A stretch of 62,310 bases of DNA, the filler included, from Globobulimina sp. (lineage: Eukaryota), in the NCBI GenBank assembly GCA_003354225.1. It is 31 parts of 31 records of this genome, joined end to end, with 100 filler letters (N's around TTAATTAATTAA, not from the genome) between each part and the next. Parts side by side here need not be neighbours in the genome. Positions count along the whole stretch, not along the records: positions 60,399 to 62,310 come from PIVH01010666.1; 30 more parts are not named here. One strand, given 5' to 3'. Made by a program: the position numbers and the translations under genes. Each line of letters starts with the position of its first letter. The stretch's first letter is position 1. This document shows, piece by piece, positions 13,653 to 62,310 of this stretch. The notes under the pieces were generated by a model. The model saw only the letters and a list, made by a program, of their open reading frames with translations, was not told the origin of the DNA and ran no database searches.

Positions 13653-14253
13653 TGCATGTGTACTAATTTCTTAGAAATTTCTACTTTCCAACTGATATTA
13701 TAAGTGCAGATTTTATCACTAAAATTGACTGTTGTAGTTACTTATTAATGATGTATGTTTATCGGTGTGGGTCATTTTGAAGATAGGTTATTCTCCTTTG
13801 TTGCTATCGGGGTTGGCAAAATTACGACTAAAAAAATGCTTCTCAGCCGCAGGCTTTACTCGGTATAATTTTGCGGGTCGATTGCTTCCGGTTTTCATGT
13901 CAATCTTCGCGGCACTTTCCTTCAAGCGTTTCGTTTCCTTCCTTTCGTTCAAGGGTAGGGGGTGGCGGCATGTGGGACTGACGTGCATGGTGGCGCTCGG
14001 GGNNNNNNNNNNNNNNNNNNNNNNNNNNNNNNNNNNNNNNNNNNNNTTAATTAATTAANNNNNNNNNNNNNNNNNNNNNNNNNNNNNNNNNNNNNNNNNN
14101 NNATACAAAGGGGGGATTATGCAAACATGGGGGTGGCTATCTTGGAATATATCGTTCAACTGAAGGGCCCTGTTATTTTTTATCAGACTTTTAAAAAAAC
14201 TGGTGATTTTCATACAACTTTTCAATTTCATATTCCTTCATATAGTTGGAAAC

Positions 14254-15896
14254 ATGCTGCATTTTCTGTTGCACTGTATGGTATTATGTATAATAGCAGA
14301 ATCAACGGTCAATTCCGATAAAACAACCAATGAACTCAATTTGCCAACAATAAACAACACTAATTCACCACAACTACTGGCCGACATTGAAAAAAAAGAG
14401 CACAACGCAACAGAAGAAATTGGCTTGGAATTATCGAATGACATTTCAAAATCAACCAAAGAAATTGATTGGAAATTACAATATGAAATAAAATCAAACA
14501 TTGACGCATTTAACAAAGCAATTACTTATTACCAAATTGTATTTAAATCACTTGAATGTGTAGACACAAACTGTCAATGCAAACATATTGATTTAAACAT
14601 TACCGTCGAGTCAATGCAGAGCACATTAACTAATCTAAATTGTGATTACCAATTTAGTATTTTGCCAGGAATTGTGTATAAATCTGAAATTTTACCCAGT
14701 GTACATTTCGATGATGAGGACAAAAGTAGCGTAAAATCGCATGTATTTTCCTTTTCGCAAGTCATGGATCCCAATATATTGTCATTTGCGTTATTAATAG
14801 GCTTAGATTATCCAGCATATAACGCATTAGATTTGCCTACAAATCAGCTGTCGAAAACGTTAACAAACGAAATTGCCGAAATAACGGAAATAAGTGCTCG
14901 CCACATCACTATTGATATCGAGACAACCGCTTCATGGAAAGTTAAAATTAAGTTAATGATAACTAAAATTAGCCATTCTAATCAAGCTCAGGTGGCAACG
15001 GAAAAAATCAGAAATCTACATTTCAAACCAGACACATCATTAATATCAAAAATTATACAAAAAAGTGATTCGATGGAAGTTTCAGCAGTTAATTTCATTT
15101 TTTTTTTATATTTATCATATTCAAAATTATATGTGCAAATATTTCAGGTTTCTATGAAAGCGGATTCATTTGATGCAAGGTACAATTATGGCGTGTTATT
15201 TCTAGGCATTATTGTGATGACAGCATTGTGTTGGTTACTAACACAATATTCTCCATACAAATGCAATGAAACTGTCAATTTTATTAAATTAGTGTTTGTT
15301 GCATTGATACGATGTATTAAACCACGAATGAAGCAATGTGTTCATTATATATCAGATTGTTTATTGTCATTAGACATTGCAAGAAGATTTACGACACAGT
15401 ACGATGTATTGCATATTTCTGAAGATGTTGAACTTGACGCATATGACCATGGAAAAGAAGATGTTGAAATGGATGGCATCGTGTTATTAAATCAAATATT
15501 CGACGAACAAAATACTGCACTGTTTACCAGGGACCGCTGTATTGGAATCTTGAAAGATAATTGGATCACGAAAGTGGAACAATTAAAACAACTGAATAAA
15601 GAAGATTGGACTCGGCTTAATATTCCTCAAAGCATACAAGATTCAATAACATCAAAACTAAAGTCTGAGGAGTCTCAATTTATTATTGAAGGATCAGATG
15701 ATTTTACATCAAGCAATGTAGATAATGTTAAGTGTATTATGTTTATCTTATACGTGGTGTGATGGTGTAAATATTAATAACATTTCAGGAATTATCGTAT
15801 CCAGTGAGTGAATCTGATAATAATAATGTCACACAGAAACTAGACAAACTGCATACTGATGAAATTTCAGATCTAGATCGTTTTTCTGATTTTTAA
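14254..15896 (+). CDS. Single-pass membrane protein with a cytoplasmic SAM-like domain; probable introns about 15088-15147 and 15727-15788
   Basis: Signal peptide, TM helix YGVLFLGIIVMTALCWLL, then ILKDNWITKVEQLKQLNKEDWTRLNIP. Confidence 0.6.
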
Positions 15897-28200: not shown

Positions 28201-30113
28201 GCAAATCAATAATTGATTCAATTTGTTCATCAATAATTTGAGTCATATCCATTTTGTTCACATTTGTACTTTCAAATAATTCTATAAACTCTCTGAGCTG
28301 ATTCAAAATATATTTTCTATCCTCAACATCATCAACAATATGCGAGCCTATATCGCAGTTGGTATCATTGACGATGTCATTATAATGTTTGTGCCAAATA
28401 TGGACACAGCTACGGAACAGTTGTTGGTGTTGATGCTCTTTATTTTTTATATATGTATACACTATGTTTGCATTGTAATGAATGTAATTTATTTCAGAAA
28501 AGGATCCGGATAATTTCCATATGGCTCCATTCAGCATACTACATTGTTCAATATCACATTTACAGCGAACATTTATTTGATAAATCTCAATGTCGCTCGG
28601 CCTTAAAAATGTAGCATACTGCATATTATCGTCAGCGATTTTTGTAATGGAGTCGAATTTCGATGGCAAAACAATCCATTCACTCTCAAAATGTTTCGAG
28701 ATCCACGATACTTTGGCCGCTCTTAACTCGCCATCGTAAATAGATTTATACGCATTGTTAATGCTTAAAATAACACCATTATTGGACGCAAATTGTTTAG
28801 CCACTCCAAAACACTCTGAAAAGCTTGTAATTGTGTTTAATGACAACAGTTTGCAATCAAATGAAACATGAAAGATGCCATGAAACAATTTATTATGCAT
28901 AAAATCGCGATGATATATAAACTTTCTATAAAATGTATCATTTTTTTTATTTAATGTGTTGTGTATTTTATCTATGGCGGAGTATAAATGATGGAATAAT
29001 TTCCTCCAATGGCACGAGAATCCTTGTTCGCGGTGTGATTCCCTCATTTTTTTACAAAAGATACTATAATCGCAGTATAATATAATGCTAAATATCTCCG
29101 AATCGCTCAATTCCACGCCTAACTTTGCTATATTTTGATATTCGCTCTTTCCCCTTACCGCAGCAATTCTGATTGCTAAGTCATCTTTATCCAATATCTT
29201 TGACTTTAAATCCAGTCTTCCTGGCTCCATCAATTCGTTCTCGATGCTTTGTTTCTTATCCACTAATTGTGCCTTTATGCCAGCAAACTTTGGCGAATTT
29301 ATCATATTCTTAATTACATCCAATTGCTGCTGACGTTCAATGTTTTTCCTATTAAAATATTCGACAATCTCTTCAATCAATGAAGTCGTCGGTGACTTGC
29401 ATGTATAGTCTGCGATTTGTGTTAATATTGCCGAGTGATCCACGGACAGACTAAAAAATAATTGCTTCATTTTGTGAACCCATTCAGCGCCTTTTATAAT
29501 GCATCTGTTGTTATTAAGCGCATCGTATATTTGTTTATAAAATTTATTTTCATTGCATATTGCATTGTTTTTCATTAAATGAATCAGCAAATGTCTGGTT
29601 CCATTTTGATACAAACAGAATGCATTCTCAATAATTTCGTTTATATTCTCAAATGAATTCAAATCCTTTGCAATTAATAGAAATATAATAAATTCATTGG
29701 TAAGTTATAAAGGTAAAAAATATACAAAAGCCATTAACTTTATGATGAACATAATGTTCTATGATTTGAGACAGCTCCGAACCACAATCTCCATTACAGG
29801 CTTGCAACTCTTTAATTATAGGATAATTCTGAAACTTTTCCTCATCCTTTGCCTCATTGTCATTGTCATCATACATATTAATGCATACAAGACCCACACC
29901 ATCACTCTCACTCTCACTCTCAAGCTCAGAATATCGATAAATATCATCCATATCACTGCAAATTCTTTCATTATTAGTAACTTTATGTTCGTTATCCTTC
30001 AGAAGAGAGTACTTTGCATCATTTTCATTCTCATCATCAGAATATCCATAAATATCGATATCACTTTCATCACTCCAAATTCTTGCATTATTTGCATGTT
30101 TAATCTCTTCACG
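28201..30113 (-). CDS. Large protein with an ADP-ribosyltransferase-like domain; intron 29738-29666; truncated at both ends
   Basis: IILYCD helix, LFHG, TSFS..FGVAKQFA, VSWISKHFESEWIVLP. Confidence 0.65.
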
Positions 30114-42578: not shown

Positions 42579-44018
42579 ATGTCAAACGATGAGTTTGCTG
42601 AATTTGAACGACGCGAAGATAGAAAATGGTCCAATTTACAACGTATCCAACAGCGGATGGCATCACGCCAACAACAACGTAAACCACCGCGACAAACAGA
42701 ATTCAAAAAGAAGAAAAAATTGAAAAACATTGAAAATCCTGAATGGCAGAAAAAATTTGAAGAGGATCGCGCTGCAAAAGAAAAAGCCATCGCTGACAAA
42801 TATAAACAAGACATGAAACGTAAAAAAAAACTAGCAAAGGAAAAAAAAACCAAAGAAGACAAAATACTGAAAAAGAAATGGAAGCGAGACGCGAAAATTA
42901 ATAAATCAGGCTTAAAAGAGAAACCTCCGGACATTCGCCAATGGAATAAAAATTTCGCAAAGCAACAAACGGAGACTCAGATGAAGATCAATGAACAGTA
43001 TGAGTTGAAAAAGCAGCAGGATTCCGAAGACAGAGTCGTGTTTAAGAAAAAAGCTGCAGCCATCGAGAAAAGGTACGATGATAAAAAGCCCAAAGTGAAG
43101 AAACGCGATCCCAATAAAAGAGCCATTGTAATCGACGCGGAACACAATGCATTCACAGCAGTGGAACATAACGATTTTGATCTATTGGACCGAATCTATA
43201 CATTCTATCCAAATGACATAAAACGTAAAGACAAACAGGGAAACACTATCTTGCATCACGCCATCAAACACTATGACAAAACGCAGAATAACACTGCAGA
43301 GATAATCGAATATTTGGTGCCGAAATTGCCGCACAGCTTCATGAACGCTGTCAACTTTTTGGGTAATCCTCCGATGATGTTGGCGGTGTACGAGCGCAAG
43401 TTTGAATGTATGAGGTTTGTTCGCGACATATTTGTCATTTGCTGTAGCAAATAATGAGAATATATGCATGAATGCAGTGCTCTTTATAGCAGCGGGACAA
43501 AACGTAGACCGAATTTGGACCATTTGAATATAAATGGACGCACAGCATTGATGCGCGCAGCGATGAGGAATGATGACGAATTGTTGGCGTTTTTGTTAAG
43601 TAAATGCCATCCTGGGCCCAGTTTGGATTTGGTGTCGGAAAAGCATGGCAAGAGTGCGTTGACCTATGCTGTGGAGCATAATCAAGTAAAAGCGGTCAAG
43701 ATTTTGGTGGAGCATGGCGCCAATTATTATATTGCAAATAAACTTGGAAAGACTGCGTATGGAATGGCAAAGAAGAAATGTCTGCGGATCATTATTAAAC
43801 AGGATCGAGTGAATGTGGTGAAAGGATTGGTGCAAAGTGGCTTGATTCGAAGTTTTAATGTTCCGGATTATATAATGGCGATTATATCGGAATATTGCAG
43901 TGCTATTCCACAGTGGGTATTGGATGAAGAGAGAAAGGAAAAAGAAGAGATAGAAGCAAAGAAAAAGAAAAAGAAAAAGAAAAAAAAGAAAAAAGGTGGA
44001 AGGACAGGGAGAGGATGA
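42579..44018 (+). CDS. Coiled-coil plus ankyrin-repeat protein; intron about 43414-43478
   Basis: GNTILHHA, GNPPMMLA, GRTALMRA, GKSALTYA. Confidence 0.88.
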
Positions 44019-52638: not shown

Positions 52639-54262
52639 TCATAAAACAATACAATTATCAGTACATAGCGTAGTATTTTCAACTTTATCTTCAATCATTT
52701 TCTCATCATCTTCGTCATCCAAAACCGATGAAATATTCTTTTGTTTTTTTTGCTGAGTTATAAATGAAATGTTTTCATCGGAATTATAATCATTATATGC
52801 TGCCATTGGGTCAATTCTTGACGAACTCGGCGATGCTTTCTTATTCTCGCTCTCCTCCTCATCCATGTCATCATTGATATATACCTTAACATCAACATTC
52901 GAGTCCAACTCTAACGACAACGAATTGGAATGTTTATGAAACCGCTGCAATTTATTTAGCTCTTTGCTCAAATATTGAATCTGCTGTTCATGCGCTTCAA
53001 TAATGACATCCGTATCGGATGATTTACTCTCAATTTCTCCAAATTTGGTACACAAAAACAGCAATTCATTCTTATTCAAACCTTGCAGTGATTGCTGGTG
53101 TAATTCATAGCCATTCTCATGTTCCATCAATATTTGATTCACGCGATATTCATCCACAACGCCAACAAATTCGTCGTCAGTCTCAACAATGCGATGCATC
53201 GACGAAACACTCGAATGCGGCACGTGCTCATTCAACAACTTCTGTGCAACCAATTGCAACTCGGACGAGACGCGCGAAGCCCTTCGAACCTCACTCATCT
53301 GATCAACCATATTTTGCTCCAAATCCGCCTCATCCGCATACGACAAAAACTCGCTTTTCCGAGCCACCCAACGCTTTTCTTCATCCATACTCTCTTCGAA
53401 TTCGTTCAATTTCGCCGCTAAATTCATAGGCAATTCCAAAGCAACCAAATCCAAATCAACACCGTTATCATTGCCACCATCAACACGTTGTTTCTCTAAT
53501 TCTGCGATGCGTTCATCCTTTTCTGTGATGAGCACATTTTGAGAGGCCACATATTGCCGCAACTCTTGAATCAACACATCTTTATTCACTTTTTTTTCCT
53601 GTTTGACCGGTTTGCATTTGACCAACGCACAGCACTCAGCGAAGCGCAATGTGGCCTCCGTCGATTTGCTGTTATCCACCGACGGAGCGATGGTGAACAA
53701 CACTGAAATACAAACGGAGCGGTTCAAGAATTCCGATAAAGTTTTTTTCAAACCGGTGCCGAGCGAGGCGCCTTTTTTTTTGATGCCACGCAGTTCGGCA
53801 AAGATGACTTGTAATTGGGACAAGCCGTGGTTTATACACCAAGCCTCCAAGCGACGCGCCACAATTTCTGACGGCGTGGCAGTGGATTGGTAGCTTTTGG
53901 CGTTGATAGCAGAATGTCCTTCGCTGCCCGCTAAGTCCACCACGATGTAATACGCTGTGATGTCGTTTAGTAAATGGACAGTGGTCACATAGCAAATGTG
54001 TCCGTGCGAACTCTCTGGGTTTTTGCCAGTGGGCGCAAAGTGCGAGCAACAATGTAGTGTGGCGATACTGCTTTGAATGTTGTTTGCGTGGATACGGATT
54101 TTATGCGCGTTTTTGCGAATGTTGCTGCTCGATTTCATCGCTTGTTTTTTGTCCCATTCTGGGATTTGATTGAGAGGATCGCCCAAATCGTAGGAACGGA
54201 GTTTCTGAGCGTGATCGCCAAAGGTTTCGACTGCGGAGAGCTCGATGTATTTGATAGTGGAG
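52639..54262 (-). CDS. Divergent kinesin (motor C-terminal half, coiled coil, CaaX tail), 5'-truncated
   Basis: NPESSHGH, VDLAGSE, INHGLSQL, TEATLRFA; ends CIVL*. Confidence 0.88.
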
Positions 54263-58758: not shown

Positions 58759-60081
58759 TTATTTTTGTGGAACATTAACCAAAAGTTGTTCTTTGGTTTC
58801 ATGAGCAAAAGGTGTCTTTTTCCGATACTGTTTGGTATATTTCAGAAACGGTATTTCCATCAAAATGAATCCAATCAAAAGTAAGAATGTGCCGGATATC
58901 GCCATCAATGTTACATTAAACCCCTGGAAGATGACATCAATAAAAAAAGTGATTGGCACAACCAATAATTGTGTAACAGCGACAAAAACAGGATTTGTGA
59001 ACGATATGGCCACCAAAAATGCGGCTGCATAGACTGTGTCCATTACTGATGTCAATACAATACATAATATATCATCAGATTTATTGGGAAGTTCAAATAC
59101 TTCAATTCCGTAATAATTTAAAACAATGAGTGGCGGCCACAATGTCAGCAAACATGCTAAGCCCATCATGCCTTGCATGAAAAACATATCTTTAATTCGA
59201 TTCCATTTATTATTTGCATACTGATTATCATTTTGTGTGTTGATGAAATATTTGTTTCCATAAATTGATGACGATACTTCCACCAAAGCAAAACCCAAAG
59301 TGGCTATTAAACATTCTATTATTCCATACCATGTATTTGATTCGCTATTATCCGATGTCCCGCTGCTTCCAAATGCGATCAATGCGACACCTCCCAAACA
59401 GAACAAAACTGAAATGTTTTTAATCAATGCCATTTTATACGTTTTTATGAATAATACACTGAATATATATGCCATGGCAACCGATGACTGATAAATTGTA
59501 TTATTGACAGCAGCGATGGTTGCATCCAATGATAAATACCAACTGTAACCGGATATATTATACAATATTGATAAAAAAAACGATGACAGCATTGTATTTG
59601 AAACAATTTTATTTCGATTAAGTCTGCATTTATTTAGCAGCAAATATACAATCAACATAATGGAATAACATGATCCAACACAATATCGTAGAAAATATGG
59701 TTTATTGTAATTACTGCTTAATAATGGAATAGTTTCTATGTATATTGCATATATAAAATAATAAATATATTTTTATTCAATAAAAATGATGGTTTTATAA
59801 TGGAATTTACCTGACATTAACACCCATGTTGATACACAAATGAACATACAAAAAGCACCAGCGACAGTGCTTGCATTTTTTGGAGTGGGGGAATGATGGT
59901 TATCGATGTGTAGATTGCTGAGATGGTCCGGTTCAATTTCATTGGTAGGACTCTCTATGAGTAATTTATCCGGTTCAATTCCATTGGAATTGTCATCTGC
60001 GTCACTGGCAGCAAAAAAGGATCTAGTCGTCATCTGAACTGTTCTGTCAGATCTGAAGTTTTTTCTGGGCACTCGAGGCAT
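58759..60081 (-). CDS. EamA/DMT (SLC35F-like) transporter; intron about 59810-59730
   Basis: YSWYLSLDATIAAVNNTIYQSS, TNPVFVAVTQLLVVP, about 10 TM helices. Confidence 0.85.
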
Positions 60082-60398: not shown

Positions 60399-60701
60399 AA
60401 TTCCTGAGTAGAAGTTATTATTTCAGTACCAAAATATCGTAAAAGTTGGTCATAAGCAGGTTGATTGCGAAATTTTTGCACCAATACGATCTTTCTGATT
60501 ATATTGTCTTGAAACATACTCGGCCAAGCTTTTAAGAGCTTTGTCAAGAACGTTGTTTTACCTAAAATTCGTTAAAATTGTACTTGCCTTATTTTCAGGA
60601 AAATGTTATATACCTGTTTGACTGGCACCCATTATGGCCATGGAAAATGGTAAATTCGGCATAATTTGAACACTAGTCGTGCCTTCTATTACATGACTCA
60701 T
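60399..60701 (-). CDS. A32/FtsK-like packaging ATPase, N-terminus; intron 60613-60562
   Basis: Spliced PFSMAIMGASQTGKTTFLTKLL..F...IRKIVLV..NQPAYDQL. Confidence 0.82.
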
Positions 60702-60738
60702 AGCTGACAGCAAAGATTTTATTATTATAACGATAAAA

Positions 60739-61266
60739 TTAAAATTGACAATTAAGCAATCGATTCTTTTCTGCTAACTGGTTCTGGCAGGGATTGGGAA
60801 ATTTGTTGCGAAACCAGTGATACACACTGACGTCATTTGTTTTCAAATCATTGCCAAACCACGACAACAGGTCAGAAAATCGATATCCCATAGCCAAGTA
60901 GAGTGCGAAGAAAATAGAGTACAAGGGACAAGTACACGAATTGGGCCCTTGTATTCGTTTCTGATTAACTTCTACTTCTTGAACACCAATAACAGTTTTC
61001 AAAGCAAATTTTATTTTATCGTCCACTTCAGTAACACTTGTAGAATCGAACAAAATTACATGAGTATTATTGTCACAAAATAACAGCAGAAAGTGGCCCA
61101 AATTTTGATTTTTGGGAACATCGAGTAAAATAAAAATATTAGCCTGACCATATATGTACAGGCTTTTCAGAGAATTAGACAAATTTGACAAATCAACACA
61201 AGCACGGAAATAAGGTTTAGTAAGGGAACAATTTTTCAAAATTTTTTCTATCTGTCCACAATCCAT
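60739..61266 (-). CDS. Adenain-like (Polinton-type) cysteine maturation protease, intronless
   Basis: MDCGQIEKIL..YFRA, GHF, FDS, RIQGPNSCTCPLY, DLKTNDVSV; H/D/Q/C in the expected order. Confidence 0.82.
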   Translation of the reverse strand: MDCGQIEKILKNCSLTKPYFRACVDLSNLSNSLKSLYIYGQANIFILLDVPKNQNLGHFLLLFCDNNTHVILFDSTSVTEVDDKIKFALKTVIGVQEVEVNQKRIQGPNSCTCPLYSIFFALYLAMGYRFSDLLSWFGNDLKTNDVSVYHWFRNKFPNPCQNQLAEKNRLLNCQF

Positions 61267-61288: not shown

Positions 61289-62310
61289 TCATGGTATAAA
61301 CTCTGTGGTGACATCCAAATTGTTTTTCAAATAAATGACCGAATGGTATTCCTGAAACATGAAAATCTTGAAAAATGGCGCCATTTTTGAATTTTTAAGC
61401 TTACCATAATCAAAATGTATGTCGTAGCCTCCTGTATAGCATCTCTATAGTCCACATGTAATTGTAAATCACTGACTCTTGGCATATCAGCAATTGATGG
61501 GTCTGAGCTGCGGGACATGTCAAAGCTGATCAAACCATAACCACCCTGTAATAAAAGGAAAACAATAAACAATGTAGAGTGCAGTGACATCCATACACAT
61601 ACCATGAAATCGTTTATAATTATTCCATTATCCCGGCCCTGGTCAGTCAAAAACCCAAGGCACTTTTTGGTTTCCAAGTATATCTCATTCACTTTTCGGA
61701 CATCCGGTTTGTACGGCAAACTGGGATAAGTGTCAGCTCCAGAAACCAGCTTTATTTCACTGATGTTAGACATATAAATGCGCCAAGGTCTAAAAAATTG
61801 AGTAAATATGAAAGGAAATAAATAAATTGTGAGCCACAAACATACGTAGTTTCATAAGTTCCCACTCGACGATCAGTACTGACAACAAACAAGAACACTT
61901 TCGATGGCAGCAATCGGTCAGTAAAGATCGTTTCACGAATCGTTTGTGTCCCGATCTGTTTGGAAAATTCATAAACTTGTTGCCAGGTGACAGGATATAT
62001 GGCAGGGGTTACTGACAATCCACTCAAAATACTCAAGTGAAGTTCTGTGTTGAGTCTGATCTTGTTATAGAATAAACTTATGCTCTCTATAAGACCATTG
62101 ATTTTGTATTTAAATTCACAATAAAATAGACTGACTTATGACTATTTTCTGATTTCGATTTGCAACGACTCCTACAGCGCTCCTGACCACAAACTTTGCT
62201 TTACTTGGTTGAAGTGTAAATGAAAGATCGACTGTGGGAATGATAAGCCGATGTTGTTTGGTTATTGGGCTCACTATAGGCACCAACATATTTATGTCTT
62301 CTGATCCAGC
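61289..62310 (-). CDS. Polinton-type double jelly-roll major capsid protein, C-terminal half; introns 62135-62087, 61845-61790, 61602-61546 and 61404-61352
   Basis: Spliced product: KQHRLIIPTVDLSFTL..KIVIKSISLFYNKIRLN..AIYPVT..LPSKVFLFVV..GTYETTPW..YPSLPYKPD..DNGIIINDFMGGYGLISFDMS..EYHSVIYLKNNLDVTTEFIP*. Confidence 0.8.

Follow-up and report, generated by a model that had tools for sequence, protein, structure and literature searches.

A short GT-AG intron splits the Walker A motif of a putative A32-like packaging ATPase in a probable Polinton-like gene block from a Globobulimina sp. assembly

The predicted ATPase gene at one end of a 1.9-kb contig of the Globobulimina sp. genome assembly GCA_003354225.1 is interrupted within its P-loop by a 52-nt GT-AG intron. 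The interrupted P-loop is confirmed at this place, far beyond what chance would produce, and comparison with relatives supports its reading as an intron well. We consider it quite probable that the contig is part of a Polinton/Maverick-like morphogenesis block, in which an A32/FtsK-HerA-type ATPase is split at Walker A by a U2-type spliceosomal intron. According to the proposed scheme, an element of the Preplasmiviricota type lies in, or was co-assembled with, the genome of an A+T-rich eukaryote, and its minus strand would encode, in this order, the 3′ part of a possible capsid gene, a maturation protease of the adenain fold, and the first 83 codons of the ATPase. The ATPase gene would be interrupted past codon 29 by the 52-nt GT-AG intron in phase 1 (GASQTG/KT; here and below, the slash marks a splice junction), and nuclear splicing would join the β-strand and the first half of the P-loop, encoded by exon 1, to the Lys-Thr pair and the following helix, encoded by exon 2. 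The scheme presupposes that splicing happens, that the absent 3′ part of the gene carries a Walker B motif, that the intron was gained in the lineage of this contig, and that this copy is functional. Because the intron cuts the ATP-binding loop, the enzyme would be made from spliced RNA only; genome packaging would depend on the spliceosome only if this copy belongs to an active element.

The window, by which we mean the whole 62,310-base stretch of DNA that was analysed, is not one locus. It is composed of 31 unrelated contigs of 1912-1915 nt, with 27-45% G+C, joined in the layout N44-TTAATTAATTAA-N44 (60 runs of 44 N around 30 TTAATTAATTAA linkers). Since the contigs are joined by linkers, adjoining stretches are without physical linkage and features are not readable across the linkers. 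The ATPase intron is located in the last contig (60399-62310), and all claims on the element rest on these 1912 bases. The Pfam scan of the window covered 48 of the 61 listed stop-free stretches of at least 130 codons. Ordinary eukaryotic families, including G-alpha, Josephin, P450, ankyrin, ion channel, WD40, PP-type phosphatase and others, were matched by 14 of these 48 ORFs, from which we take the assembly to be that of an A+T-rich eukaryote; the other 34 matched no Pfam family at E ≤ 1e-5. The best PDB matches of the G-alpha fragment were mammalian proteins of the Gi/Gt type (E about 1e-50), a result that gives no placement of the host. Several of the ORFs without a Pfam match, found in contigs 1-30, are 430-540 codons long (e.g., 14164-15759, 28202-29704, and 52642-54261), and these are host genes that evolve fast or are confined to the lineage, or else elements of other kinds that went unrecognised.

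The ATPase gene is encoded on the minus strand and starts with an ATG at 60701-60699. Exon 1 (60614..60701, 88 nt) comprises 29 codons and the first base of a split glycine codon; its codons read ...MPNLPFSMAIMGASQT and then one G, its C-terminal end can be written ...LPFSMAIMGASQT-G, and its DNA ends in GGT GCC AGT CAA ACA G. The intron (60562..60613, minus strand, 52 nt, GT..AG) interrupts the second glycine codon of Walker A in phase 1. With an A+T content of 75%, it starts with GTATAT (donor CAG/GTATAT, without the usual G at +5) and ends with TTTTAG (acceptor AATTTTAG/GT). The partial exon 2 (60399..60561, minus strand) resumes at 60561 with GT AAA ACA ACG..., where the initial GT completes the split Gly codon, followed by KTTFLTKLL... 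for 53 more codons. The spliced exons read PFSMAIMGASQTG/KTTF (joined string PFSMAIMGASQTGKTTFLTKLL), and the frame is cut short at 60399, where the contig ends after 54 codons of exon 2, which gives 83 codons in all. If left unspliced, the frame reads ...GASQTGI and meets a stop two codons after the glycine, and the primary transcript would yield a 31-residue peptide only. The signature GxxxxGKT, placed directly after a hydrophobic strand (PFSMAIM-GASQTGKT), appears only once the intron is removed.

The position of the junction was assessed against all GT..AG pairs with a spacing of 40-70 nt, taken from either strand throughout the window, with at least 25 codons open upstream and at least 50 codons open downstream. 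Among the 1278 open-frame GT..AG joins in the window, a single one has its junction inside [AG]xxxxGK[ST], and this is the ATPase intron. No contiguous P-loop was present in any stop-free stretch of at least 75 codons in the window. A variant genetic code, considered in place of splicing, was rejected because 52 is not a multiple of 3, and read-through enters the wrong frame. The intact P-loop is rebuilt by nothing but splicing, and it therefore provides clean internal proof that the small interruptions of this contig are introns. The intron is an ordinary-looking short nuclear intron and only mildly unusual; we infer from the sequence that it is spliced. The earlier note on this DNA had proposed that an intron splits Walker A at 60562..60613, that GASQTGKT is obtained only after its removal, and that the ORF track has no ATPase N-terminus here. 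These observations are borne out by the single junction among the 1278 joins and by the plain ORF list, which contains the ATPase halves only, each in a different frame.

One of the protease homologs, P0015 (444 aa), contains a protease and an ATPase in one ORF, in the same order as in the window and with no interruption. Its ATPase part has an unbroken GSTCSGKST, within the stretch ...IPFTGILVGSTCSGKSTYV..., and a Walker B motif, VVILDD. Exon 2 alone aligned with residues 218-265 of P0015, starting at the Lys of GKS, with 28.5 bits and an E-value of 5e-6 in a single pairwise comparison, and exon 1 alone gave no alignment with P0015. The spliced product aligned with P0015 over 71 columns (17 identical, 40 positive, and 0 gaps) with 44.7 bits and a pairwise E-value of 3e-11, and the 16 extra bits appear solely in the spliced register. 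With Walker A and the gap-free alignment both rebuilt, and with two introns of a neighbouring gene shared with the relative L001 described below, the interruption has the properties of a genuine GT-AG intron, as had been claimed in the earlier note.

The family membership of the window gene rests on 83 residues, since the ATPase is cut by the contig end and any Walker B, arginine finger and remaining part of the enzyme would lie beyond it. None of 14 candidate relatives of exon 2 passed in a word-based search, and among 913 candidate relatives of the P0015 ATPase part only P0015 itself was recovered. The two ATPase exon pieces of the window, scanned separately, matched no Pfam family at E ≤ 1, and P0015 scored below threshold for both Pox_A32 (16.1 bits vs. 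a cut-off of 22.8, E 0.0078) and FtsK_SpoIIIE (14.2 vs. 24). With P0015 as a query, the PDB sequence search returned one irrelevant match (E 0.7) and the PHROGs search returned P-loop noise at E 0.4; the single-sequence fold of P0015 (pLDDT 35.3) was unusable. In the language-model Atlas, 26 of the 30 neighbours of the P0015 ATPase part were Pox_A32-bearing clusters (score 0.98), originating from arthropods, nematodes, and Preplasmiviricota, and PF04665 Pox_A32 was carried by 30-43% of the members of those clusters in the top three rows; these look-alikes are a lead, not a profile match. With respect to membership in PF04665, the exon pieces and P0015 remain below the profile cut-off, and Walker A and the adjacent adenain-like protease are present. 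We regard the ATPase as most likely A32-like, a family assignment that is weaker than the earlier note had assumed.

The gene preceding the ATPase (60739..61266, minus strand) has 175 codons and a TAA stop, is without an intron, and encodes a predicted adenain-like cysteine protease. In a full HMMER scan, 128 homologs were recovered at E ≤ 1e-3. In a set of 64 sequences, the catalytic His, Gln, and Cys are invariant and the Asp is nearly so, and the window protease keeps all four residues. Peptidase_C5 was matched by 14 of the 64 homologs and Peptidase_C48 by 10 of them; the window protease itself had no Pfam match. The AF2 (AlphaFold) model of the window protease has a pLDDT of 94.7, and its six top-ranking structures in the PDB are all adenovirus proteinase (E 3e-7, TM 0.64); the Atlas neighbours of the protease are Preplasmiviricota clusters (score 0.96-0.97). 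The predicted identity as an adenain-like maturation protease of clan CE, based on these residues and on the modelled fold, is firm. The closest protease relative, P0003, is 74% identical to the window protease over 121 residues, diverges abruptly past about residue 122, and ends early; this break could mean that gene calling ran on into an intron, or that the copy is truncated. In the window, an A+T-rich spacer of 37 nt (60702..60738, minus strand) separates the end of the protease gene from the ATG of the ATPase gene; in L001 (1085-1095) the start codon of the ATPase and the stop codon of the protease overlap, and in P0015 the two genes form one ORF.

The protease is preceded by the 3′ part of a further gene (61289..62310, minus strand), which runs off the contig end at 62310 and terminates in a TGA stop at 61291-61289. 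Its exons (62310-62136, 62086-61846, 61789-61603, 61545-61405, and 61351-61289, minus strand) form a frame that is open over 265 codons to the stop after four introns are removed. No Pfam family was matched by the ORF pieces of this gene, which is possibly capsid-like, as judged by its position only. The four introns are all on the minus strand. The first (intron 0; 62087..62135, 49 nt, GTCAGT..TTATAG, phase 1) is the least certain one, being without a relative for comparison. Intron A (61790..61845, 56 nt, GTATGT..TTTTAG, phase 2) has the same place and phase as an intron in L001, and at the place of intron B (61546..61602, 57 nt, GTATGT..TTACAG, phase 0) L001 is contiguous. Intron C (61352..61404, 53 nt, GTAAGC..TTTCAG, phase 0) agrees in place and phase with a 55-nt intron of L001, and the sequences of the two are without similarity. 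An 18-nt perfect palindrome (61371-61388) is present within intron C, and contigs from two sequencing runs, X1 and X2, carry one extra A beside it (61370). The five introns of this 1.9-kb contig are all GT-AG introns of 49-57 nt with 67-76% A+T, and they jointly restore the open frames; the ATPase intron is similar in length to the four others (49-57 nt) and to the introns of L001 (54-55 nt).

L001 is a 1246-nt metagenome contig with the same gene order as the window contig and with a protease that is 41-44% identical to that of the window. It was the sole locus obtained from metagenome_contigs with the P0005 query; nothing was found with the alignment A1 in metagenome_contigs, with the protease alone or the 5-sequence alignment A3 in viral_contigs, or with P0015 or A3 in genome_contigs. 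The products of the gene upstream of the protease are 43% identical between the window and L001 over 129 residues. Two introns of this gene are common to both contigs in the same phase, one before ...PWR and the other at ...IM/EY..., and there is no sequence similarity between the introns that share a place. Constrained exons together with free introns are the pattern that purifying selection on the coding sequence would produce.

In sequencing run X1, Logan contigs are present for each of the 30 bins of the element contig. The first X1 record (381 nt, 60452-60832) extends without a break from the 3′ end of the protease gene through exon 1 and the intron into exon 2; the intron is unchanged from the window, and exon 2 has one difference, a third-position change at 60488 that we read as synonymous. 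This contig was independently assembled, yet X1 may be the source data of the window assembly. The second X1 record (60611-60702) holds exon 1 in a diverged form: over 92 nt it differs from the window at 7 positions and has two gaps of one base each. Its similarity to the window extends to the first three bases of the intron and is then lost altogether, as it also is just upstream of the ATG. The presence of this diverged copy means that there are at least two copies in the sample; the copy may be frameshifted or damaged, and some copies may be decaying. Run X2, from another study and with another organism label, contains a 258-nt contig (61270-61526) that is about 98% identical to the window, with 5 differences and one inserted base, and that retains intron C. 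Either the element or a close relative is present in a second source, or the X2 labels overlap. The designation of X2 as RNA is by guess only ('RNA?'); if it truly is RNA, the contig would represent an unspliced molecule. The contigs of four runs over the element are unspliced and DNA-like, with no joint at the ATPase intron, and are silent on expression.

The diverged exon 1 copy with its two single-base gaps in the same sample bears on the strongest competing explanation, namely that the intron is real but belongs to a remnant that is decaying or has been domesticated; the host spliceosome would then process a relic or a co-opted gene, and no genome packaging would depend on it. We give this explanation a chance somewhat short of even. 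It agrees with an element sequence of only 1.9 kb in which no polymerase, integrase, or terminal repeats were seen; such families were equally absent from the 48 long ORFs scanned of the 61 listed, which include those on the other contigs, and an accumulation of introns is expected of long-resident nuclear DNA. It has to be weighed against the three genes of the contig, all of which are open after intron removal, against the protease, in which the catalytic His, Asp, Gln, and Cys are preserved, and against the exons, which are 43% identical to L001 at the amino acid level while the introns are not alignable, a pattern suggestive of purifying selection.

The ATPase genes of the relatives bear on the history of the intron. 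The start of the L001 ATPase requires a 54-nt GT..AG intron (...LPPIPFSM/IICGASMSGKSTF) in phase 0, located 25 nt upstream of the window intron, and Walker A is therefore unsplit in L001. One spot of the ATPase gene thus occurs in three states: without an intron (P0015), with a phase-0 intron (L001), and with a phase-1 intron inside the P-loop (window). The different place of the ATPase intron in L001, where two introns of the neighbouring gene coincide with those of the window, suggests intron turnover, and would fit acquisition. The comparison of intron positions among homologous ATPases, which the earlier note had proposed as a check, hence gave positions that differ between the window and L001 and no intron in P0015, and its proposal that the element acquired the intron is plausible in this light. 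The AG/GT proto-splice-like site it had pointed out is present at the ATPase intron (CAG/GT), and is found neither at the other four of the five contig introns nor at the ATPase intron of L001.

Alternatively, the intron could be ancestral to the element group, having been lost in P0015 and moved in L001. The two introns of the neighbouring gene shared with L001 indicate that part of the intron set is older than the split between the two, and the ATPase introns of the window and L001 lie within 25 nt of each other, both of which would agree with such an ancestry. The two ATPase introns nevertheless differ in place (by 25 nt) and in phase (0 vs. 1), and one-step intron sliding over 25 nt is not known to be a common process; in addition, the more distant P0015 is without an intron. 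The pentanucleotide AGGTA at both borders of the ATPase intron (CAG/GTATAT ... TTTTAG/GTAAAA) fits an insertion with a short duplication. This repeat is absent from the other four introns of the contig and from the two L001 introns with both borders visible, and it may represent either a short duplication of the target site or no more than the splice consensus. We consider the ancestral origin unlikely, and a lineage-specific gain would fit better than inheritance, with a polarity that is weak for three sequences.

Two specific routes of intron gain were assessed. An origin by tandem duplication was rejected: the alignment of the intron with exon 1 had a score of 11 (p 0.05, 2000 shuffles), the comparisons with the start of exon 2 and with all of exon 2 gave p 0.66 and p 0.25, respectively, and the parts expected to match under tandem duplication do not match. 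An introner origin is unsupported, as the 8 introns (5 from the window and 3 from L001) have no match beyond 10-15 nt in the window or L001, the internal palindrome being the sole exception; the search for introner copies covered 62 kb of genome and L001. With regard to host introns, a donor-to-acceptor histogram for the other 30 contigs showed no peak in size, with counts below those of the reversed-sequence control, and a profile by ORF-joining led to many ambiguous solutions. Two probable host introns, each about 75 nt long, were recognised by eye at 43400-43500 and 59773-59850 (GTATGA..TTTATAG and GTAAAT..ACATAG). These stretches contain stops, lie between paired long ORFs of the same frame, and are somewhat longer than the introns of the element.

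It is very improbable that the 52 nt are a disabling insertion in an ATPase pseudogene, with the GT/AG ends and the rebuilt P-loop being coincidental. The weak donor GTATAT would be in line with such an insertion, but all five interruptions of the contig are GT-AG and jointly restore the frames, the P-loop junction is one in 1278 joins, the alignment across the junction is free of gaps, and the relative L001 needs a similar intron. A chimeric or artefactual contig, conceivable in a very fragmented assembly with contigs of about 1.9 kb, has a next to negligible probability given the coverage of all 30 bins by X1, the 381-nt record that spans the protease to exon 2 (with the proviso on X1 as possible source data), and the same gene order in L001.

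The reading that we prefer, an intron-split ATPase in a Polinton/Maverick-like morphogenesis block, can be taken one step further, which we do tentatively and with doubt. A Polinton-like lineage that has long resided in intron-processing nuclei may acquire introns in its virion genes and lose them again, with the genes themselves staying intact, and particle formation would then be fully dependent on the spliceosome. The Walker A intron would be a recent insertion at CAG/GTA, and the ATPase intron of L001 would be an independent gain. Apart from this further step, the contig indicates that at least some polinton-like morphogenesis genes carry dense, fast-changing sets of host-type introns. Intron-rich elements of this kind would be fragmented or missed by prokaryote-style ORF screens, and they would be systematically missed if the reading of a long-resident lineage is true. 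The three-state spot in the ATPase gene offers a modest natural example in which intron gain can be studied. The added interest is modest and consists in the intron turnover among relatives and the implication for ORF-based screens for virus-like elements.

The full core of Polintons/Mavericks consists of a protease, an A32-like ATPase, two capsid proteins, a pPolB, and an integrase, and Repbase-type annotations of Polintons include exon-intron models. Adenovirus IVa2 is the packaging ATPase of a virus in the same viral realm and phylum-level group as the Polinton-like elements. In the available text of one report, the protease and the A32-like ATPase are named among the components of the Polinton/Maverick core, and the adenain-type protease together with the A32-like ATPase is described as the morphogenesis pair of Polintons/Mavericks, virophages, and adenoviruses (PMC5718144). 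The window contig resembles this arrangement in having the protease and the ATPase side by side, and the Atlas neighbours are Preplasmiviricota, arthropod, and nematode clusters. Within the literature covered, a scope that leaves the founding Polinton literature outside, no spliceosomal intron is described in a Polinton/Maverick ATPase (P-loop) or capsid gene, introner insertions aside. Two surveys of endogenous viral genes have, according to the sections available, treated these genes as being without introns as a working rule and used ORF callers accordingly (PMC10120064, PMC9356565). In contrast to this rule of no introns in endogenous polinton-like genes, the window contig has five introns in 1.9 kb.

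Introns in comparable elements have been reported from two other settings. Maverick-polinton-like proviruses of dinoflagellates, in the accessible part of their description, contain introners in full-length elements that keep their morphogenesis genes (10.1101/2025.03.18.643946 / PMC12166617). Introners are multi-copy, intron-generating transposons, whereas the introns of the window and L001 are mutually dissimilar and, at 49-57 nt, much shorter than a transposon. The endogenous punuivirus of Chlamydomonas, a giant DNA virus that is latent and integrated in its host, has host-type GT-AG introns in 61 of its 506 genes, and the available text further states that these introns are enriched in latency genes and that virion genes use viral promoters (10.64898/2026.10.09.758095). 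While the punuivirus introns favour latency genes, those of the window are in a packaging ATPase and in the gene beside the protease.

A parallel in function is found in adenoviruses, for which the available portion of one paper describes abundant spliced mRNA for the ATP-dependent packaging protein IVa2, with a first exon that encodes the first four amino acids (PMC7851563). The splicing of a packaging ATPase is hence not a new mechanism, as adenoviruses, members of the same group, already splice the mRNA of their packaging ATPase (PMC7851563, same portion). The two systems are alike in that the packaging ATPase comes, or in the window would come, from a spliced mRNA, and in that the genome also encodes an adenain protease; this likeness is one of splicing and gene context. 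They differ in the place and setting of the intron, which in adenovirus IVa2 lies close to the beginning of the coding sequence and in the window lies in the P-loop, within a cellular genome assembly.
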